A stretch of DNA of 56,812 bases, filler included, from Catajapyx aquilonaris (GCA_000934665.2; 2 parts of 2 records of this genome joined end to end with filler, not necessarily neighbours in it); one strand, 5' to 3'. Counted from the whole stretch's first letter, positions 1 to 30,128 are shown. The notes: generated by a model from the letters alone, not told the origin. Program-made: numbers and translations.

Positions 1-652
1 GGTAAAAGCTGGGCGCAGGGCGGCGCAGGGGCGGGAAACACAAGTACTGTACACAACTACCGTGAGATTTTCTTTGTGCATTATTTCCTCCAATCCTCCT
101 TCCCAGTACCCCGCTGAACCTCTGAACCATAGGTAGTGCGACCAATTGAAGGGTTGCCCCGAATAATGTTGTAAGTGGCACCGAAGTGGCATCGCTTGCG
201 GTTGCGGACAAGATCCAGGCCTGCTTTTTTCTATTTTTTCATATTTTCCTAATATCCCTAGATTTCGGCCGTTTCTGCTCAGTTGTCCCTAAATCCCTAA
301 GGGCATGCCGAAATCCCTAAATCTAGGGACATATCCCTGTGTCTGGCAACGCTGTTACAGCCTTACAGGCCCCAACAAGCTGTGCTCTTCTGTGCCAGCA
401 CCTCCAGTACCACTGGACCGCGCCATCTTGTTCTGACGTCACGCTTATGACGTCCTCGACTAGCGGCCAATCCTGGAACTCGTAGCATCAGCGGTAGGGA
501 AAACACAGAATTGGCCCGGATTTGTTTATTCGGCCGGAAAACTTGGAAGCGGTGCAACGCTTGCACCGGAATTATTAATGTTTCCGGCTTGTCAGCCGAA
601 CGGGATATTCTACTTTTCGACTACTTTTTCGAGAGCCGGTGCAACCCGCCCT

Positions 653-2360
653 ATGACGTGTCCTTCATATGGCAATGAATTTTTCTTTACTTTTACGCTG
701 AATTACTGGTGCAAAAAGGGGTCTGGTGCAGTGGTGCTGCTGTAACGTACACATGCCCACGAATACAGTCCAGGGTTCGATTCCAAGCACGGGACTTCCC
801 CCGTTGCATCTCCGACGTCACCTCGGATGAGCTTACGCTATATAGACTAGCCGCCAGGGGGAATGCACAAATGAGTTTTAAAAAATTAATATTACTACTG
901 TAGTTACTCTTACTCATAGGATGCTGCTATGCATGTGATGATGTGATGATGGTGGTGATGATTCCACGATGAAGCCAAGCCCTCACCAGTGAACAAATGA
1001 GGTGTGACGTACTTTTTAAAACAAAGATGCAGATAGGACTTGACAGTGGAATAATAACATTGGACTATGTCGTTTGGTATCAAAATAATATGCAGTAAAT
1101 AAATAGAGAGGTAAATGTGACTTTACATTTTATATGCGTCTCCGCATAAAGTACAATATAATTACAATTTTCCTGTATCCGTCATTTATTGCAGGGTCTC
1201 GACAAAAACGATAAATCGATTTCATCGCATTCGCAATATATGGTAACACGAGTCTCAGTATGGGGAAAAAATCGAGTACAAGAATTGAGTTTATTATTGC
1301 GCCAGGGTCGTGTTTCAGGAAAACAAGGTCGTAAAACGACACCAAATTGTAATCTACAAGTATAATACCCATAATACCTATGGCGTGTTTGGACTCACAG
1401 ATGTTGCAACGATGTGTTACTTCCTCGACTTTCGTGTGCTATTTTCAAGATTTACAGGAAATTTTTCAAATGATTAATTCAAGGTCATCAATATGAAACG
1501 TGGTAAGATAGACCGCCACAAAACGTGGGCTACTTGTAGAGCAAATAGCTTGACACATACACCTGCTTCAAATTAGCGTAGCGTAGTTAAGACACTTCCG
1601 AGAAATTCATGCACTATTAAATATTTGATGCAACGATGGATGATTAAACTTCAAGGGTCAAAAAACATTATTCACCTGGCAAGCCAAGTTTCTTTCTAAC
1701 TAGACTGAATGAAGTCCTTCTTAGGCCTACCTGTTTAATAATTGTAATGTACAATCACCATCATAATGATGAGGACAGGCTTGGGCAGGAGCACGAATGA
1801 ACGAATTCAGCTCTATCCGTCATTTATTGCAGGGTCTCGACAAAAACGATGTATCGATTTCATCTCATATGCGATAAGGTAACACGAGTCTAGGGAAAAA
1901 AATCGAGCACAAGAATTGAGTTTATTATTGAAGTTGCAGAGAGTCCCCGTTTTGCGACGGGGTCATGTTTCAGGAAAACAGGGTCGTAAAATTAAAAGTC
2001 GTAAACTACACCAAATTGTAATGTGACTATCTACAAGTATAATACCTATGGTGTGTTTGGACTCACAGATGTTGCAACGATGGGTTACTTCCTTGACTGT
2101 CGTGTGCTATTTTCAAGATTTATATGAAATTTGTTCAAACTATTAATTCAAGGTCATCAATGTGAAACGTCGTAAGAGAGACCGTTGCAAAGCGTGGTCT
2201 ACCTGTAGACCAAATAGCTTGACAAATCTTACTCCTGCTTCAAATTAGCGTAGTTAACACACTTCCGAGAAATTCATGCACTATTAAATATTTGATGTAA
2301 CGATGGTGATAAAATTTTAAGGGTTCACTAGATGGAAAATAAAATGTCACATGTCATCTC
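653..2360. repeat. Duplicated block, near-identical to 5879-7640, with an internal second copy (1815-2360 resembles 1176-1660)
   Basis: Direct comparison by eye: 653-950 matches 5879-6170; 945-1650 matches 6570-7290; 1726-1810 matches 7562-7640; 1815-2360 matches 6797-7320. Confidence 0.85.
718..905 (+). mobile_element. tRNA-derived SINE (family 1), copy 1
   Basis: Pol III A-box-like TGGTGCAGTGG and B-box GGTTCGATTCC, followed by a non-tRNA body and an AT-rich tail. Near-identical copy at ~5946-6135 and diverged inverted copy at ~46240-46421. Confidence 0.7.
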
Positions 2361-2894
2361 ACAACGATTTTTTTTGAAGCACCTTAATGGCCTTAATATT
2401 TAGGAGCTGTATGTTGTTGATGCATAAAAGAGATATCTAGAAGTTACTAACGAATCGAAACCTTTTGTAGTTTTGTGAAGGCGTCAAACAAAAATTAAGC
2501 TGCTTTTATACAGTTCTTGGCATTGCCTTTTGTAAAGGGGGGACAACATCAAAACGCAGTGTGTTGTAATTATTCTAGTTTGAGGACGTCGATGAGAGTA
2601 ATTAATGAGGTTTTGGTTGGTGGTTCGTGTATGTTAGGTCTGGTTGTACTATCCCTAATGTTTTCTAGGCGGAAAAGATCCAGAAAATGTTGATAACAAG
2701 GGTGATTAGTACATGCCATTTCATGCTTATTAATATGCTTGTATGACCATAATTTTGCAGAGGTTTGTGGGAACCGCTTCTAGTGTAATTGAAACCTACT
2801 TCACCTCCTGCATTTGTGTTGCGTTTTGGGAGGAGGGGTGGGAGGCGGGACAATTATCACAGGCAGATTTTGGGGGCACACCATAAACACAAGT

Positions 2895-3960
2895 GTGGTG
2901 CTGTTGTATACCTATATAGTATTTTGAGAACCCTAGTATTAGTATCACAGCTGTTTTCCAGCTATTTTATTACGTTACTACTTTTGTAAACATGCTGTAC
3001 TGGCTATGTGGCAGGTTACATGATAGGGGGTTCAGCAGTTTTCATGCAGTTTTCACATGTCATATATTTGGGTGGAACAATATTAGGCCGCAAGCTTCTG
3101 AGGGCTTACCTTGTGAAACAGTGTTGCGTCCATTTGATGTACAGTGTTGTTGCAACTAATTTATTGGACAGCGTGTAGGACATCAGGATGTACAAGGTGT
3201 TCCATGTTCACTCTCCGATACAGTTAGGATTTTATGTGAATGATAAAGCAGCTGCTATAGCTGATCAATTTTCTTACGTTACAGTAGCATGTACGCGTAC
3301 ATGAAAAATGTTCAACGGTACAGTAACGCACACTTGATTTTCACCTCTATCCAGAAATCCAGCTTCTTTAAAACTACAACGTGTTTTTACGTATGTACAG
3401 TAGATTTAGTACGAATTGCATGTTCCGTACGTGTAGGGCTATGGTACGTGACAACTGTTTAGTTGGTGTTGTATGCCTACACTATTTTGAGTATTAGAGT
3501 AGTATCACATCTGTTGGCGCTATTTCGCTACATTACTACATTTGTGAACATGTTGTACTCAATATATGGCAGGTTATGTGATATGGGGTTCAGCGCAGTA
3601 AATGTACACGCATGTTACCTTGTGGAACAGTGTTTGTAAGCTGCTATAACTTAGTTTCGTGCATTTCATCTAGTTGATGTGCAGTGGTAATTTTAGTGGA
3701 CAGATAGTGTGGCAACAGGTTCTTTGGATTAGTGGAAGAAGGCATTATTCCAACCAATCTTCAACACCTTGCACGTGCGAGCTACGGTAACCTACGTGTA
3801 CTGTCAATCATTCAGGCTGCACAAGAACAGCTTTAACCTTGCTCAATGATGTGAATTTATGGAAAGCAGCTGTTATTAGCTGATTAGCATTCACACATTA
3901 CAGATGCGTATACATGAAAAATGTTCCACATACAGTAGCGAGCCCTTGACTTTCACCTCT
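2895..3960. repeat. Degenerate tandem duplication (~560-bp offset)
   Basis: Shared segments occur in both 2895-3350 and 3460-3960, e.g. gtagtatcaca, atggcaggtta..tgatagggg(g)ttcagc, aaagcagctg, tacatgaaaaatgttc, tttcacctcta. Confidence 0.65.
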
Positions 3961-4828
3961 AGCAAGAATTGAAGCTATATATTTTGGTCAAGTTGACACA
4001 TTCAAATTCAATTTTTTCTGGCAATACCCACATCCGTAAATTTACACAAGGTCACATACAATGCGTTTGTAACACTTTATTTGTGCCTTTATGATAATAT
4101 ATACACATATTGTTGGTTATGCTGGAAGATGTCCCTCCTTGCAGCAGTCTATAAGATTTACAGTAGATCACAGTGAGACTAAGATTGAAATCAGGCAGGT
4201 ACAGGTAATACGAACATATAGATAAAGCCATGCTGTATTGGTAACATTGAGTTTTATTCACACCTGAGTGATCACTTGACACATTTTTTCTTTTAGATAT
4301 TACGTACATAATGCATAATTTAAAAAATAAAGCCAGCGAATTGGTTTTGAAATAGTGTTATTAAAGTGCTGCGTGTCAAAATAGGGCAAATTAAAATTTA
4401 ATTCCTGGATGAAACCTGCTGTCCAAGATCAAGGCGCTAATGCGTTCATATTATTAACAAGTAACCAATTAAATGGGAAACAGTGAACGTAAGTCAGTAA
4501 ATGTATGTGACATTTTTTGACAATTATTCTCAATCAGCACTTAACTTAAAGTAATGAGAGGTCATGTCCAACTTGACCGATGGATCCTTCGAGGAATTCG
4601 TCACTTCTCTCCTGTTTGGTACTCTGTTACGTAGGTGTGTCCAGCTTGAGTTAGAAGATATCAGATGGTGTCGGATGGTAGCAGTCAATTACGAGTCATC
4701 TGGGAGGAAATGAGATTGACATTTCAAAAATGATATCGTTAGGTTCATCACTCTCGGTATACAGTACCTGTTCCACTTACTGTTACTGATGTTGCTGGCT
4801 TAGGCCCAAAAGATATTACCCATTACCA

Positions 4829-5264
4829 TCAGACCACACGAACATTTAAGCGTGCGTCGACTTGGCCATTTAAATCCGCTATAAAAGACGAATAAAAATA
4901 TTGCCATGTATTATGATGTACAATGTAGGTGATTACTTAAAAACGAAAATATGAAATCTTACCTTTGAGTTCCACATCCTGTCCTACATCATCCGAAGAA
5001 AAGAAAACCAAATTAAAATAGTCGACGGACCCTTTGATTATTCGTAGAATAACCTACCGGCTGCGATTTACTTCATGATACTGGTACTCACATATATACG
5101 CAGCACAAACGTTCCAAACTGATTTTCAATATATTACCTACTCCACATAAAATAGGCTGTTTTCCTGGTAGTCACATAATAGCAAGAATAGACACGGTAC
5201 CTGCTGTTCTTTCCACAAAGACCATGAAAAGCACGATAAGGACCAAGAGGCTCAGGAGAGTCAT
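4829..5264 (-). CDS. Small secreted micro-exon peptide 1 (44 aa as written; possibly a truncated allele or pseudogene of a ~68-aa peptide)
   Basis: Exons 5264-5201, 4983-4963 (21 nt) and 4878-4829, all GT-AG phase 1. Translation: MTLLSLLVLIVLFMVFVERTAG-QDVELKADLNGQVDARLNVRVV*. It has a signal-peptide-like N-terminus. A further donor (4767) and a strong acceptor (4700, terminal exon DDS*) lie downstream. Confidence 0.65.
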
Positions 5265-5878
5265 CTTCGACACTTCTGTTCTAGTTGCTGTACAGGAGAA
5301 GCACTAGCTGATCACTATGGCCGAGTCTGCAGAAGGCTCAACTCTTTTCATATGCAAATGTGGTTGATTATACACAGATGTCGTGAATATTAGTGAATAG
5401 TTTTCTCTCAAGGGGCAATGGTGAACACGTGAACATCAGTGAGTCAGTTTTATAGGAATTGTTCTTTTGTGTTTATTAAAAGTTGAAAATGGGAAAATTA
5501 TCATTTTAACATGCAGTTAACTTGAAATGATGATTGGAGAGATGACTGTTGGGAGGTATGGCTGGATGAATCTCCAGCGATTCATTCATCTCTATATCAC
5601 AAAATGCTATTGGAAAGTCTACACATACTGCCTTACAATGACTTCTAGTTTTTTTTGGCTGTCACATAATTTTATTTAACGTTAATAGTAGTTCAATGCT
5701 GAGATGAAGGCACGTTGTACCGCACCTACAGTTGCTAACTCCTGGCAGTACATGTAAATTTCATGTAAATGAGATGAAATGATGCAGTGAAAAGTGAAAG
5801 GTACTTCAGTAAAATTGCTTTTTCTTTTAAAACCTTCAGAGATTTATGTGGCATTGCTTAATCTTGTTATTTATTCCA

Positions 5879-7640
5879 TTATGACGTGTCCTTCAGATGA
5901 AAATGAATTTTTCTTTACTTCTACGCTGAATTACTGGTGCAAAAAGAGGTCTGGTGCAGTGGTGCTGCTGTAACGTACACATGCCCACGAATACAGTCCA
6001 GGGTTCGATTCCAAGCACGGGACTTCCCCCGTTGCATCTCCGACGTCACCTCGGATGAGCTTACGCTATATAGACTAGCCGCCAGGGGGAATGCACAAAT
6101 GAGTTAAAAATTAATATTATTACTATTGTAGTTACTCTTACTCATAGGATGCTGCTATGCATGTGATGATTGTTTCCCTGATTTATTTGAATGCAATGTT
6201 GTTCACAGACATAGAAACCGCTGAATTTGTATTAAAATTGTTGTCACATCAATTTCGGGTTTTTTCTTCTTCGAAATTTACCATTGATAGGGTAGTATAG
6301 AAACGATACTGCTAAAACGTCAGAATTTATTTGCTCATATACTGTAGGTACACTACAGTATTTAGTACGATTATCATGTAACGTGGCGAATGGTTTTGTG
6401 AAAGCAGATGTTGCGTAGGCTACATTGTTACCAGACTATTAATACCTATATGGTGTAAGAAGGTTAGGCCATGGTGGCATAAAACCTTCACTCTCCCAGA
6501 ATCTGATACATTTTACAATATAGTGCATCCTCGATATACTGTCCCCGGATGTTTTCCTGGTTCCCGGATGACGGTGGTGATGATTCCACGATGAAGCCAA
6601 GCCCTCACCCGTGAACAAATGAGGTGTGACGATCTTTTTAAAACAAAGATGCAGATAGGACTTGACAGTGGAATAATAACATTGGACTATGTCGTTTGGT
6701 ATCAAAATAGTATGCAGTAAACAAATAGAGAGGTAAATGTGACTTTACATTTTATATGCGTCCCCGCATAAAGTACAATATAATTATAATTTTCCTGTAT
6801 CCGTCATTTATTGCAGGGTCTCGACAAAAACGATGAATCGATTTCATCGCATTCGCAATATATGGTAACACGAGTCTCAGTACAGGGGGAAAAAATCGAG
6901 TACAAGAATTGAGTTTATTATTGCGACAGGGTCGTGTTTCAGGAAAACAGGGTTCGTAAAATTAAAAGTCGTAAAACGACACCAAATTGTAATCTACAAG
7001 TATAATACCTATGGCGTGTTTGAACTCGCAGATGTTGCAACGATGTGTTACTTCCTTGACTTTCGTGTGCTATTTTCAAGATTTATATGAAATTTTGTCA
7101 AACTATTAATTCAAGGTCATCAATATGAAACGTGGTAAGATAGACCGCCACAAAACGTGGGCTACTTGTAGAGCAAATAGCTTGACACATACACCTGCTT
7201 CAAATTAGCGTAGTTAGCACACTTCCGAGAAATTCATGCACTATTAAATATTTGATGCAACGATGGATGATTAAATTTTAAGGGTTCACTAGATGGAAAA
7301 TAAAATGGCACATGTCATCTTGTCACTTAACCATATCGACATAAATGAGGTAACGTGCTCGAAAAGAGCTATGAATAGTGCAGCGACTCCAATTGGGAAC
7401 ACTGCCAAGGTTATAAGACGATCTGGCAACGTCGCTAACTATCTTACTCTTGACGAATAAGGCTATAATTCGTTGCTTGCCCTGAGAAATAATATTCAAC
7501 AAATAATGCAACAATGGGCGTCATAATGACATATTTAAGAAATGTCAACTAGGAAATTCATTACCTGTTTAATTATTGTAATGTACAATCACCATCATAA
7601 TGCTGAGGATAGACTTGGGCAGGAGCACGAACGATTTCAG
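5879..7640. repeat. Second copy of the duplicated block (includes SINE copy 5946-6135)
   Basis: High identity to 653-2360 by direct comparison. It contains ~400 bp (6170-6570) absent from the first copy. Confidence 0.85.
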
Positions 7641-7982
7641 CATAACACTGGCGGTATTGTTATTAATATTATTCAAAGGCTATAAACGTATGTTGCATCA
7701 AGTTCGACATTTAGTTTTATTCACAGCTATAAAGCACAGTTACTGTTATTTACAAAATGACAGCGTTAGTACACATTACTGACACTATCACGAAATTCTT
7801 GCACTGCTAGATATTTAATCGAATATGAAAAGTCACTGGATCGAAAATGAAGCAGTGCACATATGATAATTTTCCAACTTCCACTGAAAGGTTTGTTTTG
7901 GGTTTTTGTCATCAGGTTCCTAGTTAATAGTTTTGTCGAAAATATGGGGGCTGGAGTTTTGAAAATAATTACACTTTGCCGA

Positions 7983-8720
7983 TTACACAGCGCCATCTGA
8001 AAAAAGGAATCAGATATCAAAAATGTGTAAATCGATTCAACTAGCGGCACTCTTTTTCTGTGTTTTTGGTTGTCTGTCTCACCAAGTGGTTGAGGTATGG
8101 GTACCACGACTTCCACATCTAAAAACTTAGCTGGGCCGGCACCTACACCTGTATGGAATGGTGATTGAAACCATTGTAAATTAAGAATATTATGGAATAC
8201 CCAAGGCAGTTTATGCTCTTATGATAGATTGACTTGCCTGCTGCAAGATCGACTTCACCATCTACGCCTGTGGAAGATAAAGAAATAATAACACAATCAT
8301 GTTATATTTTGTATTAATGTTCCATCCTTACCGCCATGTACGATGAAACCAACTGGGCCAATATTTGCCTGGCGATCTAATACAACATCTGCGTGATAAA
8401 AATATGTAAAATATTTTAGACACATTTCATTAGTACGTATTTAACTGTGCAAGTAGGACCTTATCTGCACGCATGTTTCTTCGGATATGTAGCGATATGC
8501 ACAAATACAAGTGCGAGGTTTTGAATGTTACAAGACATAATACAGTGGGTTCGAACTGATAATTGAAAATGTTTAGCGAATAGATTTATCGGCTATCAAA
8601 GACAGTTATAGACTGTTAATCTTCAGTTGCAAATATTAGGAGCAAATAAAAATTGCACACATTACCTGCTTGAACATTGCTCACAAAAAGAAGAGCAAGC
8701 AAAAAGTAGAGGAGTTTCAT
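7983..8720 (-). CDS. Small secreted micro-exon peptide 2 (73 aa)
   Basis: Exons 8720-8666 (55 nt), 8388-8332 (57), 8267-8238 (30), 8148-8083 (66) and 7996-7983 (14), all introns phase 1; intron 3 uses a GC donor (CAG|gcaagt). Translation: MKLLYFLLALLFVSNVQA-DVVLDRQANIGPVGFIVHGGVDGEVDLAAGVGAGPAKFLDVEVVVPIPQPLDGAV*. Classical signal peptide ending V-Q-A. Confidence 0.75.
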
Positions 8721-9615
8721 CTTCGTGCTGTCGTTACCGCTGGTTGCTACTGGAGTACTGGCCTCTCACTATCTCTACCAGCCGTCTTTCGCTGTCCGTA
8801 TGCAGATGAGGTTGGATATGGAGGCACGTGGAACCTTGCGTGGAACGTATTGGTCAGTCTCAGTAGAATAATTATTTTACACATGTTCGAATCCAGACAT
8901 TATGATGTGTTAAGATCCCATCAATATGCAGATTTACTCATATGGTCTTTACGTAAAACGATAAGTACGAAAGAACATTTGTGACATATTCACTCAATTT
9001 AGTGCACAGGACTCAACTGTACGAGTACATTATCCTTGGAGAAAATTCAAAAATTCTTGCACGAAGCCAGCAAGGTGTTTGGACAATAGGCCGAAATGTG
9101 TTTCAAAATATCTCAGGTACTGTGTAATTGCCCAAATTTGCCAACTTCATGTTCTCGCGAGTTGGCGATAACTGCATTTTCTTGGCACCATAAAGTCAGG
9201 CAATTTGGCCAAGTTTTCGTAAACTTTGTCATGTAACATTTGTGCTAAAAAGAATAGAAACCTGTAAAAGCGCCATAGAGTGTGCACGCGAATCTATTTT
9301 GGGAATGTCATTCAGAATTTATTTATTTTCACAAGTTAATCAAAAACCAAGCACAAAATGTCCTGCCGAACTTAGTTTCAATTCTACAGGTTAGTTACGT
9401 CGATCATTTCTTGCAAAATGGCTGAGCAGTCCCTGAACACTGCTCTTCTGCCCTTGAAATTATAACATATGTTATAACATATGTTGAGATATTAATAAGG
9501 CTTTTAAAATGAAGGCTGCACATGTTAACATCGTGGCATGACTTAGCAATTTTTTTCATCAATTTTACTCTTACAATATTATTAGAGAAATTATCTTGTA
9601 AGACCAGAACAGAAG

Positions 9616-9670
9616 AATCTGATACGAGGAATTAATTGCAATAATTGCAATTAATTCCTCGTATCAGATT
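9616..9670. repeat. Perfect palindrome (27-bp arms, 1-nt loop)
   Basis: aatctgatacgaggaattaattgcaat-a-attgcaattaattcctcgtatcagatt. Confidence 0.95.
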
Positions 9671-11274
9671 ACTAATTATTAGTACACTTGTACATGTGTT
9701 TCACCGTTAAGGTTCACCTGAATGCGTTGACACCCAAATGAGATTAGGGTGGTGCAAAATCGGGTTGACAATGGCCCGTCGTCCCTTTTGAAATGGTGTC
9801 AACTCAGAGGGAAAGAGATATGAAAAGGGCCTCTCATTTATTTCCTCCACACCGCCTCCTACATATATACATATCCACGTATATACAGCAAAGGCCGCTA
9901 GGGGATATCTAAGGCCAAGAATGGTAATTTCCATGTCAAAAGACATCATCTTTGTGATGTTGCGAATAGCTTGAGTTGGGTTGGGGTGTTGGTTGGGTGG
10001 GGGGGTCTTTTTCGGGGAATGTTTCGGGTGGGCTTTTGGGGGTCTACCCAACTTTCCCACAATTTCCGGGAGTGGAAGGGGTGTAGGGGGCAAAAGGGGG
10101 TATGGAACCTAGGGGGGATAAATTGATTCGAGGCAATTTCAAACATTGCCTTTCCCCCCTATAGGCCGTAAGTGATCTGGATCATCCCGATTTCCCATCA
10201 GATCTGACGAACAGCTATTGATTTAACCAAAAGTCACTTGACTTTTGCACAAAAAAATGTTGTAAGAAACTACATTAAATATGAGGGCCAATAGCGGAAA
10301 TGATTGAACCTGCATAGCTGACATAGTGGAAGTGTTAACGATAATCAATTCAATAACCGTACGGTATGTCAGGGTTTGGTGAGCTGCAATGCAATTTGCA
10401 CCCCTTGGCCAACTATGTGAAACTAGCCATATTTATAGAAGCGGTGTAACACTTTTCCTACCGGTATCTCCTTTCTCTTCCAAGTCAAAGCGCTTTATAA
10501 TTCACGGATCATGTGCAGCTGTCTTTCCTCCGCCGAGAGTAATGGGGTCCGAAATTCAATTTTGGGAACCGGCGTTTGTTCTTCAGGTTGTCAAGTGGTT
10601 TCCAAAGTGCAAGAGCATATTTCTGGAGTCCATGAAAACTGTAACGGATTTTTTTTGACCGTTATTTTTTTTCTTCTCCAGAGAGCGCTGCAATCGAGTT
10701 ACTCCCTTTAATTCGACAATGGCGTCTTTATGTATCATTTGTGTCCTTTACGAGCCAAAATGCTAATTATCGCTGTGTTATTTTATGACAGAGGGAGTAA
10801 TTATGGTCCTAGAAGATAAAGAGGTGTAACGGTCACAATGCAAGCAGGACGTACCGTGTATGATGCCACTGCCGACCATTATGAATTTAGTACTTCAATT
10901 AAAGGGGTATGAAAGTATGATTTTTTGCGGCGTTAACAAAGGTAACGAGCTCTGATACAGTACAAATTGATTTATCTTAACAGGGTTAAAATTGTTATTT
11001 GATAGCTAGACCACGACGCAATTTTTTGTTAATTTTAATAGGATCGATCGCTATGATTTTGGATTAATTTTAGCTCCAGTCGTGTTGGGAATATAGTTCA
11101 CAACATACTCTAACTTATTCATATAAAAATTTGGCCACTTGAGTACACATCAAACTTTCACAAAAATTGCTTATTATTGCAATGAATATTTGAATGAATA
11201 TTACATATCTGAATNNNTTCCCCCCCCCCCCCCAAAGCCATCCTCATTCTTAGGCATAATCCCCATTGATATAC

Positions 11275-11341
11275 ATAGCTTGCTTCACGTTACCTTATAG
11301 CTTGCTTCACGTTACCTTATAGCTTTCTTCACGTTACCTTA
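11275..11341. repeat. Minisatellite, 3 x 22 bp
   Basis: atagcttgcttcacgttacctt repeated three times. Confidence 0.9.
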
Positions 11342-14062
11342 CAGAACTCGGTCCCCTTTTTGTTCACCGAGGCCAAAAATGGCACAAAAAGATACCAAAC
11401 CTCGCAAAGGCGTTGTTGGAATCACATCGATGTTTCTTTTCTCGCCTAGAATCGCATCTGTGCATAGCTAGAACCCTACCCCCCCTTTTTTTTTTGAGAA
11501 ACTCGAATCAATAAGCGGTCCTACTTTTGCCCTTACACCTTCCCCAAGTTTCCGATATGGAAGAAAGATTTGGCAATATCACCTCGCAGGCCGATTGTGG
11601 GCGCTTCGTAACAGTACGCGTTTGCGTGGGAATCTGAGTCTCAGATATTGGAACAGAGAAGGCTTGAAAGGGATTCCTCGATTGGGAAGAAAACCAGCTT
11701 ATTGAAACTCAATCCTGGAGAGCATAGGGAGTTGGAGATAAAGTTACCCACGGGCGTGTGTTTTTTTTGGGAAATAACCTCCAGCGATGTGATTCCTATG
11801 ACTCTATCAATATTTGCATAGGGGTTTCAGTATATCTGGTATCCATTAAAAAGATTGTGGTATATTTTTATGAAGACTTGAGGGGGATCCGAATTTAGAA
11901 GGAAGCATGTGGCTACTCTTGAAAGTTTTAATTTTATCTGGCCACCAACATAAGCGTCATAAGGCCATTTTGTAGAGGGCTTTTTTCCAAGCCTCATCAA
12001 GGTCTCTAGATGAAGCCTGAAAATGACAAATGGTTGGCAGGAAGGAAGGGCATAGTTTGGACTAAGGGGGGGTAGGGTCCTTCCACTTTTGGGGAATGCA
12101 AGGCATTATATCATCACTCGCAATTTCCACGGCGACCCCACGGCTTGAGGTCTGGCCACCACTTTTCGGCTCTAACAGCTTGCTACGAATTGTCCCACAT
12201 TCGTCTGGCTACAATGGCCGCGGCACACGGATTATTGTGGACTGGAGGTTTTTGAAATATTGCGGAAAGGATCGACGTTTACTCTGGTGTCAGGATTTCG
12301 GAGCAACAGATGGAGACAGTTATGTGCATGATTATTTTCACTGCTGCTCATTTCCAGCCACCAGATGGCAAAGTTTTTTCCCCTCCAGTATCTTGTGGGG
12401 TGCATAAGAATGGGTCCATTACTATCTTGAGAATAGAAACCAGTTGCGCAATGTCACGTGACTTGCCTCCCATTCGGATCAACAGATGGCGACAGCTACT
12501 CGCATATTTTACGCTCCTGTTGGCAGATGGCGGGAGAGACGTACGCGTTCCATTACTGTCGCCATCTATTGCTGCTGGGGGAGAAACCAGGCACGTAGCA
12601 CGCACCTTGCCGTCTAGTAATGAATATCGCGTTACTTGCCAAAGAAATAACAGCATTTGTCACATGCCAACGGTCCGTACTTAACTGATGCCTTTCCTCG
12701 CACATTTTGATAACTGGATGAAAAGAACTTGGCAGCTTTATTTCTGGAAGGAGAAACCTTTTGAGGGCAGGGCGCCCTATTCTAACACTGTTCCAGCCAC
12801 ACTCCTAATCGCTTCTTCATAAATCACCATCATTGTCGTTTCAAGCGAAACTGCGGGGGCTTCCCCTCAAAAACTTGTAAAGACTCTCGCTTCAAACTGA
12901 AAGACTTTTGTCCTCACTTGGTAACGCTTCCTCATAACGGTTGCCACAACTCGGGAAGATTTATAGGTTATAGGGCGTGGATGGTATTTCGGACTGTGAT
13001 GAACTGATAATTAGAGCAGATGGTGGTTAGATACGTCGAAACGAAGAAATTTTGACCTAGATTTTTTTGGTGGCCAATAGAGGGTTTGAGGTTGTCTGGG
13101 AACGATCCTCAGGGTCAGATATGATGACTTAGAGGAGGTCATGAGTTACAAATCTAAGTACTGCGATAACATGGGCTAAAGTTCTGAAAATCTTTCTCCA
13201 CTTGCTGCAGGTAGTTTTCAAGTAGGTCATAGAGCTCGTTGCATCTGCGTGTAATGTAATCTTCGGCTCCGGGTGGTAACGAACTTCTAATTGGATATCG
13301 TTGTAAGGTCAGGGTGGGATTTGTAGGTCGACCCATAACCGCCGGCAAGGTAATTAGCAAGCCTCACCATTTTGTGCCTTGTAAAGTAATGATCCAGAAG
13401 GTGAAATGGGATCCGAGGGTGACAAGAGAGAGGGGTTGGAAACAAAGTTTCCAAACCCCGTGCCCTCCGGCCTTGTTGGAAACTTGGTAAGACTTACATA
13501 CCAAATCATTATTGAAGCTGACGTAGCTGATGCGATTTTAGAAGGGTCATACCGGGTGTCGTCACGCACAATTTATTGACGTTAACTGTACAAACGAAAG
13601 TAGTGATTTATTAATGACGCTTTAATTTGCCCCCCTTTGTTATTCTCAAAGGACCGCAAAACATGTATTGCTTTTATGGATTGTGAATGTTCGCATTTGT
13701 GTGTAGCCATATCGAAAACAGATGAATGCCGGATCAGACAATGCGCCACAAAACAAAAGCTCTACACGACAGGATCTGCCAAAAAGTCAAAAACGTAAAC
13801 CAGCTCTATCAGCAGGGACTAGGCCCTCGACTGGTTAGTGTATAACTCAGTATGTTTTCCGCAACCCTATTGCCTCATCTATCACGGATGGTGAGAATTT
13901 ATTGTCGATAGCGAGTCCCATAAGGGGCCGGGGTTATTTCCCGGTGCCAACTTCCAGATGAAATAAATCAGGGAAAAGGCGTCAGCTTCTTTCCACTTCA
14001 CTTGCCAGTCTCTAGACGCCGAAATCCCGAAAGAGCCAGCCCGCCATGATGACCACGCTGGA

Positions 14063-14175
14063 ATAGGGCTGACCACCCCACGTATAGGGCTGACCACCCC
14101 ACGTGAGGGCTGACCACCCCATGTGTAGGGCTGACCACCCCACGTGTAGGGCTGACCACCACGTGTAGGGTTGAC
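14063..14175. repeat. Minisatellite, ~5 x 20-22 bp
   Basis: tagggctgaccaccccacgtg-type units in tandem. These explain the repetitive ORFs at 13882-14187. Confidence 0.9.
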
Positions 14176-17100
14176 TCCAACTTCCACTATTAATATTTAG
14201 CGTGAAAGAATGCTTTAACGACAGGTTATGAACCCGACGGCTTCAAAAGGGGGTTTGATCAGTCTCCTGGAGGGCAAAAATTGGACACAAGGGAAAAAAC
14301 CTGGTCGCGGGAGGTAGGAATTTGCAATCGGCTTTGAATTTTCGCCATAGATGTTGCCGCCCGCTCGATTTTGAATGGGCTGGCGGTTTCCACAACACGA
14401 TTTGGTCGGTGCCGATAGTTCGTTTACACTCGAATTAACCCTAGGAAAAACGGTATAGGTAGGTAAGAGAAGCTTGTCACTCTTTGCACGACTGACTTTT
14501 CAAAATGTCAATTTTGTACGACTTAGTAACATCAGGAGCCCCTTAATTATTTCTAAGGACCTACCCTTCCGGATCTGTGCTTTTATCGGCTTATATGTGT
14601 AGCATAAACAGAATGTACCTTACATTTCAGGTTTTGTTTCCACAAAGTAAACTTGGAGAGCTTCCGCTTTTATCTCTGCAAAAGTTAGACGTCACGATTT
14701 GTTCTGAAATCACCTTTGGCAACGCGTGCAGTTGGCAATATAATACAAACTGCTTTAACTTGCTCTGTGCAGTATGTAACTTTTTTTTGTGTAGCCATGT
14801 TAACTACACGCGGGGGCTAGAGTGGAACACGCAAAAAAGTGGAGAAATAGCAATCTGCTGATGACATCCTGATCGTGCAGTTGAATCGAGTAGGGCTCTT
14901 GGCAACTGTCTTGGCTTGACACGTCTCAGGATGAAAAGAAGACCCAAGAAAAAAAAAGTAAGAGGATATATAAACGCACGCAACTGATAGTCTCAGGACT
15001 ACCACAACCTTACTTCAAAGGGAAGAGGTGTGAAAAGTGATATAATCAGGATGTGTGTGGAAGTCTGCCAACAATTTCGTTTATAATGGATGATACGTCA
15101 AATGTAATTGAGGTTTTTCAACTATTCGTGGAGGTGAGGGTGAAAGGTATCATTTAATGATTGTGCGGTCGTGATCTGGCAATTTAACGATTAAAATGTG
15201 TGGAATAGTTTCGATCGTTTATTCTGTTGGTTATAAACATTTGATGATTTTGGTGCTTCATCATCTATCATACATATCGTGTATGTAGCGTATTTCCAGT
15301 TGAAATTATTTGCAGTTCAGGAAAATTCCAACACTGTTTAGAATATTTTTTTAAAATTCCAGCTACCTGTTACAAGCCTTAGGCCGCTACATAAAATACG
15401 CACGTCATTGATATTGCATCCGCATTTTTACAGTCCGCTTACAGTAGTGCATAGCAGCAAAAAAAATAAAATCTGAAATATTAAAATCCCAAAAGTATGC
15501 CCAGAACCGTCATTAAATCGAGTTAGATATTGCACCAGCTTCGAATCGGATATAACTTGGGGCTATTTTAGCCGCAACGTGCAGCCCCCGTATAATTCGA
15601 CGCCAACGGTCACCTTCCTTAATACAACCTGACATCCCGCTTTGTACAGTACTCGGAATTTAATAACCTTTACAAATGATATACGTTTGCTGTCTATTTC
15701 CTCCCAAGTGCTACCACTTAATCTGGGACTCTAATGAAAATACTTTTGACATACCGTATCCCTGGATACCGGATCGAACAATACGCTTCAAAATTATCTA
15801 ATTCTAGGTAACACCTTGATTTTATTGAAATTGATATGAAATTATTTTTTAGCTAATTTTGCAGTGAGTCGGCCCTAGGCAACCCAGGCGTTGGTGACGT
15901 CACATACCCCCCCNCCCCCCCCCCCCCCCCAAAAAAAAAACATAGGAAGCTGCATGTTTCCGCTGACACTTCATGATGGGCTGTATGTGGGGTGGAGAGA
16001 CATTATCTCTTGACAAGTGCACTGTAAACGAGGACGTGCTCACTCTCATCCGGAATTTTTTTTAGTCATTGTTGTGTAGGCTGTAATCTGGCGTGTGTTT
16101 CGTGACAAAAACTCTAACTTGATAAGTGCAAATGAAAGGAAACGGTACAATTAGAGGCTTTGATAGGATAGGATCTCATTAGGTTCAGTTTTTTTTTAAT
16201 GTGGGAGGAACATAGTTCCCTGAGAGGATAAAGTTAAACCAGACCCAACCCCGTTATTTTATTCAGGGATATTGGATTATTCATAAGTGGTCGAGTGGAA
16301 TCGATCCCACAACTTGACCCTATCCGTATACATTGGGACTAGAATTTTCCGCCTGTAGCTTTTTCGCTTTAAAGTAATTCCCAAAACGTCTGAACACGCC
16401 CCATTTTTTTTGGAGTCACTAAAAAAACGGGTTTCAGGTTTCCTTTATGTTACGATTGAGCTGGAAAACAAAAGAGAGAACCTCTATTGTTACATCTCAG
16501 CGGTAATGAGACCGCGACAAATATGGAAAGTCATTTGTTCTCGTGTCGTTTAAAGTTGGGGGAATAGTTTGTGCTAAAGCTAGTACCTAATATCTGCTCC
16601 CGCTGCGATTTTTTGAGGGGGGGGGGTATGAAAAACAAGCATATTTGCACATGCGCAATATGGTTGTAAAGTATATCTCATGCGGTGGTTTTCCGGCAGT
16701 GGACCTGCGGTTTGTTAATGAAGTCCGGTTTTGTGCCTAGTTTTTATGCTGAAAAAGGCTGTTGTGGTGTATGGTCGGTTTTTGATATTATGTGGACTAA
16801 GTTAGGTCCTCATAGGAACGTTATAGGTCATTTTGAAGTGCAGTTTTTTACTACCTTGAAATTGTCCAGTGACTGATGAGAACTTACCTAGAGAATGATC
16901 CAATTCAAATTTCGTGGGTTAAAGCGATAAGTTATTTATATTTTAATTGCTGCTCATTATTGCTATGTTCGATAAACCCATCTGATTGACTGAAAAAAAG
17001 GAAATGTTCATACTTCATATTAAATGTGGCATTAAATCTACAACGCAGATAGACCAATTTTTCCTGGAATGTAAATATCTCTCGGTACAATGCACATTGA

Positions 17101-24100: not shown

Positions 24101-26593
24101 GCAGCTAACCCCACCATGGGCGCTAGTTCGGGGTCAAAGCAGTGCCATCAACCGCGACCTCCTCATGTATGCCCAAGTCCTGGAAGAGATGGGTTGGACA
24201 TGGAAGGTGGACCGCAACCCTTCCTCAGCGTACCTCCGCAAGAGCAACACCACCAGACAAGACGGCTGGTCACTCCTCCTGTGCCTGGCATTCACCGATG
24301 GGGACAAAGGCGAGTGCTTCAACCAGGAGGACCTCTTCCAACTTAACCCTCGCCAGAAGGTGGGTTGACCATGGTTGGACAGGGCATTGTCTCACTCTTT
24401 GCTCCAACAGGTGAGCAAGATCCCTGGTATCCGCAACATGCTCTGGCGTAAGGACGGATTGTGTAGGACCCTGGAGAGGGCATCCAACCCTCTGGGACCA
24501 CTCTGCTTCCCTCTTCCTCACCGCTTCGAGGATCTGCTCAACGAGGCCGACGGAAGAGCCTCTTCCACTTCTTGGGTCCTCAAACCCACGCTTCCAGGAG
24601 CCCGCCTCCAGCACTTCTCCACAACAGACTTCTTTCAGAGAGTCAGACTTAAACAGTGAGTGGCTGGTAGATGGCAGTAAGGCTGACCTTGACCTCTGCC
24701 TCCTCCAACTTTGCAGGTTTCCTCTCAACGAGGAGAGTGTAGTGCAAGAGTTCATTCCTAACCAGCTCAGGGTCTTGGGGTACCCAGTCAGCGTCCAAGT
24801 TTACGTGCTTATTACCTCCATTTCCCCGCTCCGTGCCTATGTTTACAACGATGGACTGGTGCATTTTAGATACAATGCTAGTAAAGGGTTCAAAAAGGTA
24901 CAGGACAGCCCCATTTTCGGGCGCATTTGGTACTCAAACTTGGTGCAGATTTCAGGAAAAACATGGCTGACCTCGCAGTTGTGGCAGGCAATGTCGGAAC
25001 TGCAAGGACCCGATGCTATACGAGAATCGTCGGAAAGGACCGACTCCCTCCTGATGAACCTCCTTCTGGTTGTAGACTCCATGTTAGCCGAGTCATATGC
25101 CCCAAACTGCTTCCAGCTGTTGGGAATAGAGCTATTCTACAACTCCTCCCTGCACCCTTTTGTCATGGAGGTCACAGGTCAACCTAGCATGCAGGAGAGT
25201 CCCATCCCAGCTGATGGATTGAGGAAGAGTCTACTGAAAGACGTCCATGGAATTGTCTTCTCACCGGAGCCAATTCATCAACACGTCCATTCTGCTCTCA
25301 CTCATCTTACCCAATCCCGAGATTTAGGTGAGTGCTGGCATTCTTGAGGTCATATCCAGGTCAGTGATTGTGATGGATCATTGCAGGTGTTACCGGACTT
25401 AGCTGCCTTCTGGCTCATGATTTCTGCTTGACTCAAGAGGACCTGAAGTTCATGCTGGAGTCCAGACGCGAATTTTCATCTATTGGTGGATTCAGAAGGC
25501 TGTATCCAACACCTGAAGGAAATTCAGTGTCTGATGCTGTGGAGAGGTTGCAGAATAAAATGGAGCGTCCTCATGCCCACAAAGTGTCTAGGTACTGTTC
25601 AAAAGTGTACTAATATGCTCAATGTACTTAAAGGGATATTGTTTCAGAAATAAATACAGGCACTCAACAGCAGACATGCACTACGTACTGACAGACATTG
25701 AGAGTTACTTTTCAAGTCAGCAGATCAGAGAGAAGGAGAATGAAGAGGACAACGAAGACGACTATCCGATAGCCATGTCTAACGATATTCACAGGTGGGT
25801 TCAAATCTGGCGGTTTGGTGGTCGATGTTCAAATTCCGTCAGTAGATGGGAGGGTTGCAATGGGGGAGAAGCTCAATGGATGCCACATGGCCTCATAGAT
25901 GGCAGTGCACGCAGGATTTCTGTTAAATTCTATTGTCGATACCGCCTTTTACAATTCGACCAGACACTTAATTTGAATATAAAATTGGGTCGTTACACGT
26001 ACGCAGGTTCCAAGTACGTAATATGCAGTACAAGGGACAGAGGGATGACGACGAGAAGGAAGTTGAGAGGAGCGACTGTCTTACAGGTAAAATCTACTCT
26101 GGTGTATAGGGCACTGAGCAACTATTAACCAAGGTGTTTTGTTCCAGACATGTCGACGGCAGCGTACCTCCAAAAATTGGTGATTGAACCTCGTGTAGTC
26201 ATTCATCCAGCTTTTAATGCCTTATGGGCTGACTACACAGCTCATGTGCCATATGATCTCACTATGATCAGGATTGGTGGGATACCGACTAGATGCGGTG
26301 TTGAATTACGTCTGGATGACAAGTTTGGAGTCACACTGTTAGTTCTTTTTTTTTTGGTCGTTTAAGGCACTAATCAGTGAATAGGCACTTATGTTCTGAT
26401 ATTAAATTCCAGGCCAACCAACGTAACATTAGGACTGGGTACTACTAAGCTGTCCCTGCTAGTCGTCTCAACTACCTCAAGCGACACCTGGGTCCTGGCC
26501 AGCTACACGTTGACTGTCAAAAGAAAGTACCTGAGCTCTGGAGAGCAACCTTTCGACCCTTCCACACCACATCAAGTCTGCGGCCTGAAGCAG
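18148..26593 (+). CDS. CPED1: Cadherin-like and PC-esterase domain-containing protein 1 homolog (partial: start codon unresolved, C-terminal PC-esterase exons absent)
   Basis: Phase-consistent GT-AG exons: 18148-18390, 24081-24359, 24411-24655, 24717-24897, 24949-25327, 25387-25591, 25648-25794, 26007-26086, 26148-26337, 26413-26593. N-terminus RRRRWC plus a signal anchor. Motifs recalled from vertebrate CPED1: WSLLLCL, LWRKDGLC, VYVLITSISPLRAYV, CFQLLG, and the cadherin-like segment YTAHVPYD..LGLGTTKL..YTLTVKR..VCGLKQ. Confidence 0.85.
22590..22695. repeat. Short tandem repeat, ~3.5 x 29-30 bp (in CPED1 intron 1)
   Basis: aagcgttatttttaacgtatttttgttcg-type units. Confidence 0.8.
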
Positions 26594-28468: not shown

Positions 28469-28548
28469 CCACGCTCATTCTGACAGTAATATACTGTGTG
28501 AAATACAAGTAATTTCTACTGAAATAGACTACCGAATGATTGTTTCAG

Positions 28549-30128
28549 GAGTGCTATGTGGTTGTTGAAGGCGGAAAGGAAGAATCAGAAAAACTGCTGC
28601 AGCAGCGCTTTGACTACATCTTGTACACTGGTTCGGCTAATGTTGGCCGATTGGTTCATGCTGCTGCCACTAAACATCTTACGCCTACTACTCTGGAGTT
28701 GGGAGGAAAGAGGTTGGAAATGTTGTGTACTATCATAAGCCCAAAATCACGAGCACTGATATTTTATTTCAGTCACTTCACCTTTTGCCAATATGCGCTG
28801 AAAAAGTAATTTGTCACTGTCATAATGGACAGGGTTCCATTCACGATTGCAATGGCACTGTTTCTTTACCTTGCATTATTGAAGCTTCTTCCCACACGTA
28901 ATAAGTTAGACTATGACTAACGATGATGAACTTGTACAGCCCTGTATACATTGACGACTCAGCGGATTTAGAAGTAGCAGCTCGCCGACTGCTGTGGGCC
29001 AAATGTGTGAATTTGGGCCAGATATGCATCGCACCTGACTACGTTATGTGCAGTACCAAAGTGGAAAAACGCCTCGTAGAGCTAGCCCCCAAAATATTAA
29101 CTTCCATGTATGGACAGGAGCTGTCGAAATCTCCAGATCTCTGCAGGATAGTTTCTGACCCTCATTTCAAGTAAGAATATGTTTTTAAACACCTACAAAA
29201 TTATTATTTACGTCTTCTGAAGATATATGCTAAGCCTTAATTATTGATCATCATAATTATTATGGTATGAATACAGTTACTGCACACTCTTCTGTTTCAT
29301 AAAAGCATGTTTCAAATTCAAAATTGCAGGAGGGTAACAAATCTCCTGCAGAGCACCAAGGGTCAAGTGGCATTTGGAGGCAAGAGCGAACCGAACCAAC
29401 GGTGGGTGGAACCAACCATAGTTGTGGATGTCAAGGAAGACGATGCCCTTATGAAAGGTGAAATCTTCGGGCCGATTCTGCCCATAATGCGTGCCAATTC
29501 ACCCCAAGAAGCCATCCAGTTTATATCTAAAAGGTGCCTCATTGATTTATACGCACTTTCTTTCCTATATTTGTATCGAAAACGCTCTAAATTATTTTAT
29601 ATGCTTAAACTGATATAGTGAGACAGATGTTCAAAGTATGGGTAAATGATGAAACACCATAAGATTTTTTTAAATGCACGTTCTCTGTATTCATTTAGAG
29701 AGAAGCCACTGTGTATCTACGTGATGAGCGAATCAAACGATGTGCTGAAGTGCTTTGAGAATGGTACGTCTTCTGGACAGCTTTGCGTGAATGAGCTACT
29801 CCCTCAATTTTTGGTGGAACAGCTTCCATTTGGAGGTGTTGGCGAGAGTGGAATGGGAAGTTACCATGGACACCAATCATTCTTGACCTTCTCGCACCAG
29901 CGTCCTGTGGTCAAGAGAGACCTGTCTAAAATAGGAGAAGCCTTGGTCAAGGCTCGGTACCCGCCTTACCAGGACAAATCAAGGTTTAAGACTCTGCGTC
30001 GAATGGTGGCTTCTGCATGGCTGCTGGATTGGTCGAAAGTACCTCGTGCAATCATGATCGCTCTGGCAGCTGCATTTCTGTTTGCTGCTGGGTTCCTTCT
30101 ACGTCACTATGCTGGAAGCTTGTGGTAG
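28549..30128 (+). CDS. ALDH3: Aldehyde dehydrogenase family 3, membrane-anchored fatty aldehyde dehydrogenase (ALDH3A2-like); 5' exons missing
   Basis: Exons 28549-28712, 28940-29170, 29330-29533 and 29699-30128. Motifs [17 protein letters not shown] (general base Glu), GQICIAPDY (catalytic Cys), EIFGPILP and [17 protein letters not shown]-terminal hydrophobic anchor [24 protein letters not shown] at ~30286. Confidence 0.95.

Follow-up and report, generated by a model that had tools for sequence, protein, structure and literature searches.

Two candidate minus-strand genes for small secreted cysteine-free peptides in Catajapyx aquilonaris, one with a long alternating pattern

Results

Two small candidate genes on one strand

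The window analysed here is a stretch of 56,812 nucleotides from Catajapyx aquilonaris (GCA_000934665.2), made of parts of two records that are joined end to end with filler and need not be neighbors in the genome. Two candidate genes lie on its minus strand, ~3.4 kb apart. Gene 1 (5264-4829) has three exons (64, 21 and 50 nt), and gene 2 (8720-7983) has five (55, 57, 30, 66 and 14 nt). A repeat at 5880..7641, with a second copy at 652-2359 (blastn pieces, 85-96% identity), sits between the two genes and belongs to neither. An earlier note on this DNA had proposed small spliced genes for secreted Cys-free peptides at this locus, and sequence signals support this idea strongly in the case of gene 2 and moderately in that of gene 1. 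On balance, we favor the reading that these are two separate small genes, each with a predicted product made up of a signal peptide and a short, acidic extracellular peptide free of Cys; both are gene predictions, not a demonstrated system.

Known domains and structured RNAs gave no alternative assignment in the regions scanned. Pfam returned no match above the gathering score for 150 unspliced open frames of at least 45 aa from positions 1-16,550, a set that took in the frames carrying gene 2 exons 1, 2 and 4 and gene 1 exon 1; a single sub-threshold chance match fell outside the two genes. Rfam returned nothing relevant on 1-12,000, with one sub-threshold chance match at 9604-9699.

Gene 2 has clean splice sites and a single open frame

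Exon 1 of gene 2 (8666..8720, minus strand, 55 nt) contains the ATG, encodes 18 residues resembling a signal peptide and stops one base into the following codon, at a phase-1 donor (G/GTAATG) scoring 3.9, within the top 1.4% of GT sites. The next three exons on this strand are each phase 1-1. Exon 2 (8332..8388, 57 nt) has an acceptor of 4.4 (top 1.4%) and a donor of 4.6 (top 0.7%), with a GC content of 0.46 compared to 0.33 and 0.27 in the flanking introns. Exon 3 (8238..8267, 30 nt) has an acceptor of 8.2, in the highest class in the window, and its donor is GC rather than GT (CAG/GCAAGT), with every other position fully consensus and a score of 8.7. Exon 4 (8083..8148, 66 nt, GC 0.52) has an acceptor of 4.3 (top 1.5%) and a donor of 2.8 (top 3.2%). 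The coding part of exon 5 (7983..7996), preceded by an acceptor of 6.0 (top 0.4%), adds four residues and then TAA. An AATAAA on the same strand (7716..7721), the likely polyadenylation signal, lies ~260 nt past this stop codon and inside the 13-mer TGTGAATAAAACT.

All four introns, with lengths of 277, 64, 89 and 86 nt, are phase 1, and with a consensus-based splice-site matrix all eight sites fall within the top 0-3.2% of the GT or AG sites of the window. Exons range from 0.38 to 0.53 in GC content, compared to 0.27-0.36 for introns. The spliced message is open in the proposed frame only, the other two frames containing 6 and 3 stops, and an in-frame stop lies 5' of the ATG. Both strands of the window were scanned for chains of this quality following signal-like ATG exons, using thresholds derived from the two candidates themselves, and gene 2 was the only one recovered. 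The reversed window contained no such chain, and 30 order-3 Markov window-equivalents contained none either, also with the requirement relaxed to two introns. Based on these clean splice sites, the single open frame and the absence of a comparable chain from the rest of the window and from the controls, we take gene 2, as predicted, to be a real gene.

Homologue searches were conducted with read-through pieces of the genomic sequence. A 48-residue piece around gene 2 exon 4 had no counterpart among proteins of 26-84 residues in a word-indexed search of a large protein collection, and the six candidates among longer proteins included none with E <= 10. Five HMMER matches to this piece, with E-values up to 0.001, were rejected as homologues because they are repeat-inflated alignments to unrelated repetitive proteins, two of which cover intron-derived residues only. 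This absence of exon 4 from proteins of either size class in that collection, together with the lack of a Pfam match to any open frame of the region and of a TATA or Inr hexamer within 240 nt upstream of gene 2, is what would be seen if neither gene were protein-coding and the features were exons of non-coding transcripts or chance signals. We regard that explanation as very unlikely, given that nothing like the gene 2 chain turned up elsewhere in the window or in any of the controls, and that its one open frame begins with a segment of textbook signal-peptide shape and reaches its stop in the last small exon.

Gene 1 has weaker splice sites and a shorter chain

Exon 1 of gene 1 (5201..5264, minus strand, 64 nt) contains an ATG and a hydrophobic stretch of ~15 residues and ends at a phase-1 donor (CAG/GTACCG) scoring 0.6 (top 9.4%). 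On the same strand, exon 2 (4963..4983, 21 nt, phase 1-1) has an acceptor of 0.6 (top 11%) and a donor of 6.7 (top 0.1%), and exon 3 (4829..4878, 50 nt; acceptor 4.1, top 1.8%) contains 16 codons followed by TGA (4831-4829). Exon 3 holds 15 residues of an alternating pattern within a single open frame; its 8-codon halves are identical at 14 of 24 nt. The introns are 217 and 84 nt long, with GC contents of 0.37 and 0.25 compared to 0.47-0.48 in the exons. An in-frame stop lies 5' of the ATG, a TATAAA lies 190 nt upstream of it, and an AATAAA is found downstream of the gene (4253..4258, minus strand) in the same 13-mer context as at gene 2.

The exon sizes of 21, 57, 30 and 66 nt proposed previously for the two genes hold up, each being a multiple of three and phase 1-1. 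A last exon of three to four residues beginning with D had also been proposed for both genes. This stands for gene 2, where exon 5 (7996-7983) encodes four residues, D first, and then TAA, and fails for gene 1. The exon drawn there (4689..4699, minus strand) does have a strong acceptor (6.4, top 0.3% of AG sites), but it cannot be joined in frame to exon 3, which itself reads into the in-frame TGA and ends without a canonical phase-1 donor. Nearby, the sole reasonable donor lies 2 nt past the TGA, at 4826, with a score of 1.5 (top 6%). The acceptor at 4699 could possibly belong to a 3'-UTR intron starting at donor 4826, or be spliced directly to exon 2, bypassing exon 3 and giving the gene an alternative end.

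Several of these measurements would also be expected if only gene 2 were real and gene 1 were a chance hydrophobic ATG frame that happens to be followed by passable splice sites and an alternating frame. Chains of gene 1 quality occurred on average 1.0 times per simulated window, at least once in 16 of the 30 simulations; the reversed window held one such chain, and the real window a further one at +19316. Two of the four splice sites are just in the top 9-11%, a second frame of the spliced message is also open, and a 43-residue piece around the signal exon had no homologue among proteins of 23-76 residues. We nevertheless consider a chance origin of gene 1 unlikely. Its weakest sites (0.6) are equal in quality to those inferred for an aldehyde dehydrogenase gene that the window also contains (donors 0.9, 3.8 and 1.0; acceptors -1.1, -0.7 and 2.4), its exons and introns differ in GC content, and its strand and architecture are those of gene 2.

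Both candidates begin with a putative phase-1 signal exon

The two phase-1 signal exons described in the earlier note (5264-5201 and 8720-8666) were confirmed as ATG-initiated and strongly hydrophobic, each with a GT donor. In both candidates the best 10-residue hydropathy window is at least 2.5, the filter value used in the scan. By inspection, K occupies position 2 of the gene 2 N-terminus, the core spans 11 residues and V-x-A precedes the putative mature D; V at -3 and A at -1 are compatible with cleavage there. The gene 1 N-terminus has a core of ~15 residues and T-A-G ahead of Q, and is without a basic n-region. From these features we infer secretion and the approximate points of signal-peptide cleavage, and within one residue of each likely cleavage site lies the phase-1 first intron.

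Peptide 1 alternates perfectly over 20 positions

The gene 1 precursor is 44 residues long and would yield a mature peptide of ~22 residues with an N-terminal Q and a net charge of -1. Polar and non-polar residues alternate perfectly across 20 positions of this peptide, and the register is kept over the exon 2/3 junction. The earlier note had described peptide 1 as binary-patterned, and the statistics agree: only 2 of 200,000 composition-preserving shuffles matched the run of 20, and no run of at least 20 exists in the six-frame translation of the window. Two further runs of at least 15 do occur there in non-genic frames, one of 18 (8794-8847, plus strand) and one of 15 (1107-1151, plus strand), so exon 3 alone is not unique. 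These runs lend some weight to a chance origin of gene 1, against which stands the great improbability of a 20-residue alternation in register across a splice junction. The hydrophobic moment is 2.78 at 180 degrees and 0.32 at 100 degrees. The predicted peptide 1 does carry an amphipathic pattern of the beta type, and one of unusual length.

As an extended beta-strand, peptide 1 would have one aliphatic face and an opposite charged face, and because of these faces it would be expected to pair with its own copies or to rest on a hydrophobic surface. A hairpin at the central N-G was considered and is disfavored, as with a two-residue turn each face would become a mixture of polar and non-polar side chains; an uninterrupted strand, or a loop of odd length, would therefore fit better. 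The GP turn formerly suggested for both peptides does not apply to peptide 1, which is without proline in the three-exon model. Alternating polar/non-polar sequences drive amyloid-like assembly, and for this reason natural proteins generally avoid long alternation. Alternating amphipathic sequences are reported to be under negative selection in natural proteins (PMC2680634). A stronger proposal, that the animal puts the gene 1 peptide to deliberate use as a functional amyloid or adhesive, assembling by itself into a beta-sheet material or a coat on surfaces, with gene 2 as a diverged tandem partner producing cassette-exon isoforms, strikes us as quite improbable.

Peptide 2 is acidic and shows no regular pattern

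The gene 2 precursor of 73 residues would yield a mature peptide of ~55 residues with abundant V, G, A, D and P, a net charge of -6 and no regular pattern. Binary patterning had been claimed for this peptide as well, and the claim does not survive: the longest alternating run is 7, a length reached by 58,193 of 200,000 shuffles (29%). We interpret the predicted gene 2 product as an extracellular peptide restricted to its lineage, with a possible link to matrix or cuticle. Composition confirmed that both mature peptides are Cys-free. The membrane-active option raised previously is countered by the net charges of -1 and -6. With both peptides acidic, a classic cationic membrane-active role is therefore disfavored, and the net positive charge with amphipathicity of cationic antimicrobial peptides is found in neither.

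The two genes share short strings at their ends

A common family had been proposed for the two genes, and the mature peptides give it no support. A blastp comparison of the products gave E = 1.3, with the best segment within the signal peptides, and the suggested shared motif (DLNGQVD and GVDGEVD) is identical at 3 of 7 residues. DNA matches between the loci are short ones only, with E >= 0.046, and alignment of the loci and of their polyA regions revealed no extended DNA similarity. Short strings are shared at the gene ends; these were noticed post hoc and are to be read as such. The 9-mer CGAAGATGA occurs twice in the window, once at each start codon, and the 13-mer containing AATAAA also occurs twice, each time after one of the genes. 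Local alignment of the loci scores highest over 22 nt at AATAAA, a score that was met by 13 of 4,000 random window segments, and the score for the 5' 80 nt plus signal exon was met by 41 of 4,000. The signal exons alone are not significantly alike, with 1,503 of 4,000 random segments reaching their score. The shared start-codon and polyA strings speak further against a chance gene 1. The two genes may share an origin at their ends, with mature peptides that are not detectably related.

These comparisons also bear on the fuller proposal of the earlier note, in which the two genes form a paralogous micro-exon family of binary-patterned beta-fibril peptides (adhesive, silk or cuticle) or membrane-active peptides, diversified by exon skipping. 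In both genes, 3n exons come after a phase-1 signal exon, and all seven exon-skipping combinations of gene 2 preserve the frame and the natural stop. GC donors, such as that of the 30-nt exon, are often tied to alternative splicing. The alternation of peptide 1 and the identical short strings at the gene ends also agree with this proposal. We nonetheless judge it to have little chance of being correct, as the mature peptides are without significant similarity, the locus DNA is alike solely in short end strings, the alternation of peptide 2 is at chance level, and both peptides are acidic, which sets them apart from most membrane-active ones. In addition, no further copies of either gene were found in the window, the last exon of gene 1 as drawn cannot be spliced in frame, and neither exon count nor intron size resembles that of micro-exon genes (MEGs) as described in the source considered below.

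Discussion

We read these loci as probable orphan secreted-peptide genes of an ordinary kind, one of which would encode an unusual peptide. If expressed, they would add two further unannotated orphan secreted-peptide genes in an arthropod, a class that gene finders routinely miss because the exons are tiny. Peptide 1 is short enough for direct synthesis and testing.

The position of the first introns is shared with secreted-protein genes in general. Phase-1 introns are over-represented around signal-peptide cleavage sites according to PMC1626468, and both candidates follow this without difference. On that account, secreted-protein genes in general tend to have such an intron at this place, and this part of the observation is ordinary.

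An analogy to the MEGs of Schistosoma had been drawn in the earlier note, and it holds for exon symmetry and breaks down on exon number and intron size. In 10.1101/2023.06.21.545858, MEGs are described as specific to Schistosomatidae, with 10-20 exons of mostly ~15 bp (range 6-81 bp) and introns of 0.1-5 kb. Compared to that description, both candidates similarly have a putative signal peptide and, after it, short 3n exons whose skipping would preserve the frame. Their internal exons of this type (57, 30 and 66 nt in gene 2; 21 nt in gene 1) fall inside the MEG range of 6-81 bp and far over the typical 15 bp. In contrast to the MEGs so described, the candidates reside in an arthropod genome, consist of just 3 and 5 exons, and have introns no shorter than 64 nt and no longer than 277 nt.

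A closer likeness is offered by the lineage-restricted small secreted BCR and SP proteins of pea-aphid bacteriocytes (Shigenobu and Stern 2013, PMC3574423). As portrayed in that paper, these resemble the present candidates in having small frames that begin with a signal peptide (putative here), in matching no Pfam domain and in being without relatives beyond their own lineage. Their genes are often missed by annotation and sometimes clustered, and the aphid SP class is Cys-free, as are the peptides predicted here. The likeness is not sequence-based, and by the same account the BCRs have 6-8 Cys and the aphid SP proteins 108-413 residues, compared to 44 and 73 residues and no Cys here.

Finally, the predicted peptide 1 can be set beside designed binary-patterned and ionic self-complementary beta-sheet peptides, the comparators being Hecht-type alternating designs and the EAK16 and RADA16 types. 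The strict alternation of such designs is also present over the 20 residues of peptide 1, and here too one face is aliphatic (V, L, A, G) and the other carries acidic and basic residues. Peptide 2 is without this alternation. In peptide 1, unlike the designed peptides, the order of charges forms no simple repeat and the central N-G may break the strand; it would also differ from them in being natural, gene-encoded and presumably secreted. If expressed, peptide 1 would be a rare natural case of a long, perfectly alternating amphipathic sequence, a kind otherwise known mainly from designed self-assembling peptides.

Exon structure of the candidate genes

Gene 2, one of two candidate minus-strand genes for small secreted peptides, is modelled with five exons. 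Exon 1 (8720-8666, 55 nt) carries the ATG and a signal-like segment, exons 2 (8388-8332, 57 nt), 3 (8267-8238, 30 nt) and 4 (8148-8083, 66 nt) are all of phase 1-1, and exon 5 (7996-7983, 14 nt) adds four residues before a TAA. Exon 3 ends at a GC donor (CAG/GCAAGT, cut after CAG). The resulting precursor has 73 residues and its introns (277, 64, 89 and 86 nt) are all four in phase 1. In the spliced message, the proposed frame alone is open, with 6 and 3 stops in the other two, and GC content is 0.38-0.53 in exons versus 0.27-0.36 in introns. When every GT or AG in the window is ranked, the eight splice sites fall within the top 0-3.2%. This model very probably represents a genuine small gene that is unannotated.

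Gene 1, also on the minus strand, is modelled as an exon with the ATG and a signal-like segment (5264-5201, 64 nt), a 21-nt exon of phase 1-1 (4983-4963) and a third exon (4878-4829, 50 nt) of 16 codons followed by TGA. Its precursor has 44 residues, and the two introns measure 217 and 84 nt. Two of its splice sites are strong (6.7 and 4.1) and two are weak (0.6 each, top 9-11%). An earlier note had described the exon sizes (21, 30, 57 and 66 nt), the phases and the absence of cysteine correctly, overlooking the GC donor of the 30-nt exon. Its last exon for gene 1, ending at 4689, has no usable join, as exon 3 meets the in-frame TGA, and no phase-1 donor of any quality was found among the GT/GC sites near the exon 3 end. 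An acceptor at 4699 in this locus is strong (6.4, top 0.3% of AG sites), and could belong either to a 127-nt 3'-UTR intron from a donor at 4826, 2 nt beyond the stop, or to a direct, phase-compatible splice that leads from exon 2 past exon 3 and results in a D-initial ending. Gene 1 is probably a real gene.

Controls for chance

Splice sites were scored with a simple matrix from an insect consensus and ranked against the GT/AG dinucleotides of the window. Calibration came from the aldehyde dehydrogenase gene of the window (four frames or exons, 28540-30125, plus strand, from a Pfam scan), for which three introns were inferred with ALDH3-type sequences as a guide. These introns (227, 159 and 165 nt) score only moderately, with donors of 0.9, 3.8 and 1.0 and acceptors of -1.1, -0.7 and 2.4, and the sites of gene 1 are therefore inside the working range for this genome.

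Both strands were also scanned for a hydrophobic-core ATG exon that leads, through further exons in a consistent frame, to a stop. The thresholds were drawn from the candidates themselves, so the figures flatter both genes: at gene 2 thresholds, the scan returns gene 2 only, with no chain in the reversed window or in any of 30 order-3 Markov simulations, each of two window lengths, even when the requirement is relaxed to just two introns, and at gene 1 thresholds, it returns gene 1, gene 2 and one other, with one in the reversed window and a mean of 1.0 chains per window in the simulations (16 of the 30 contained one or more). The additional low-threshold chain, a signal-like ATG exon with two introns starting at 19316 (+), is of a quality expected by chance about once per window. 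The contrast is clear: splice signals alone suffice for gene 2, but not for gene 1.

Sequence patterns of the mature peptides

With cleavage placed by inspection after small -3/-1 residues, the predicted mature products, peptides 1 and 2, have 22 and 55 residues. The alternation that had been proposed for peptide 1 was borne out, with polar and non-polar residues alternating perfectly over 20 positions and the register unbroken where exon 2 joins exon 3. Of 200,000 shuffles that preserve composition, only 2 matched this alternation. The hydrophobic moment at 180 degrees is 2.78, versus 0.32 at 100 degrees. Six-frame translation of the window gave 50,331 alternation runs, none of length 20 or more. 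Three runs reach at least 15, namely gene 1 exon 3 and two that are evidently non-genic, and exon 3 by itself is therefore not unique. The longest alternation in any single open frame, 18 residues at 8794-8847 (+), is found on the strand opposite gene 2, a short way upstream of the gene 2 start; it is taken as chance, and indicates that alternations of 15-18 residues are possible without a gene. The complete alternation of peptide 1, spanning the junction and preceded by a signal-like exon, is not easily put down to chance. The two 8-codon halves of exon 3 agree at 14 of their 24 nt and in 4 of their 8 residues, a likeness reached by 496 of 20,000 shuffles that keep the polar/non-polar class, which is a weak hint of internal duplication.

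Binary patterning is not supported for peptide 2, since its longest alternation, of 7, was attained in 58,193 of 200,000 shuffles. Peptide 2 is rich in a few residues (V 12, G 9, A 6, D 6, P 5) and resembles an extracellular peptide of low complexity and acidic character.

Relationship between the two genes

The proposal of one family with binary patterning was only half right. The products show no significant likeness: they align by blastp at E = 1.3, with the best segment inside the signal peptides, and the supposed shared motif (DLNGQVD/GVDGEVD) has 3 of 7 residues identical. Peptide 1 is without proline, so the GP turn said to be common to both is absent from it. Alignment found no extended DNA similarity between the two loci, and no further copy of either gene was found within the window. 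Two strings, spotted post hoc, recur at the gene ends: CGAAGATGA occurs just twice in the window, once per start codon, and TGTGAATAAAACT just twice, each time at an AATAAA downstream of a gene's stop. Compared with random window segments, the likeness score of the 5' 80 nt plus signal exon was attained 41 times in 4,000, that of the polyA region 13 times in 4,000, and that of the signal exons alone 1,503 times in 4,000. These strings are a hint of shared descent, or of signals that the two genes have in common at their ends.

Genomic setting and homologue searches

In this eukaryotic window, no Pfam family scored above cut-off in the 150 open frames (at least 45 aa) within 1-16,550, and both genes therefore lie in a stretch without recognised domains. 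Beyond 16.4 kb, 67 of 184 open frames of at least 62 aa were chosen for the Pfam scan and five matched, one under Pfam's cut-off. A tubulin-tyrosine-ligase-family frame (24415-25344, plus strand) and the aldehyde dehydrogenase are the sole recognised protein domains in the window, and are distant from genes 1 and 2. The DNA between the two genes (5880-7641) has a copy about 5 kb away at 652-2359, in several collinear pieces of 85-96% identity, and probably represents a dispersed repeat or the remnant of a transposon. Within it, a stretch at about 5940-6090 has a tRNA-derived look by eye, on which ARAGORN and Rfam made no call. Elsewhere, long tri- and dinucleotide microsatellites at 31.9-32.2, 33.9 and 34.7-35.2 kb translate as poly-V/poly-L, LS and YI repeats, and simple sequence coding for proline and glycine flanks an N run (assembly gap) at about 55.5-55.8 kb.

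Homologue queries were unbroken read-through pieces, each with one exon inside it. The gene 2 exon 4 piece had no relative among near-length or longer proteins, and none was found for the gene 1 signal-exon piece; little weight attaches to these negatives, since a query with one exon of about 20 residues picks up near-identical sequences only. Five matches from an exhaustive HMMER search (E up to 0.001) were rejected as repeat-inflated hits to unrelated repetitive proteins, two of them aligned to intron-derived residues only.

Proposed mode of action and comparison with known systems

Each gene would encode a signal-peptide precursor with its first intron in phase 1 at the predicted cleavage region, an arrangement that is usual in secreted-protein genes (PMC1626468). 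Once released, peptide 1 would be patterned like an amphipathic beta-strand, one face aliphatic and the other of mixed charge. Amyloid-like sheets are formed by designed peptides of alternating periodicity, which natural proteins reportedly avoid (PMC2680634); by this analogy, peptide 1 would most likely pair with itself or coat a hydrophobic surface. The membrane-active role also suggested earlier is argued against by the acidity of both peptides (net charges of -1 for peptide 1 and -6 for peptide 2).

The analogy drawn with the micro-exon genes (MEGs) of Schistosoma fits in exon symmetry and fails in exon number and intron size. MEGs are described as Schistosomatidae-specific, with 10-20 exons, mostly of about 15 bp, and introns of 0.1-5 kb (10.1101/2023.06.21.545858), whereas genes 1 and 2 have 3 and 5 exons and introns of 64-277 nt. 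The closest known kind is the lineage-restricted small secreted proteins of insects, for example the BCR and SP proteins of aphid bacteriocytes (PMC3574423), which differ from the gene 1 and 2 products in cysteine content or length; no homology is claimed.
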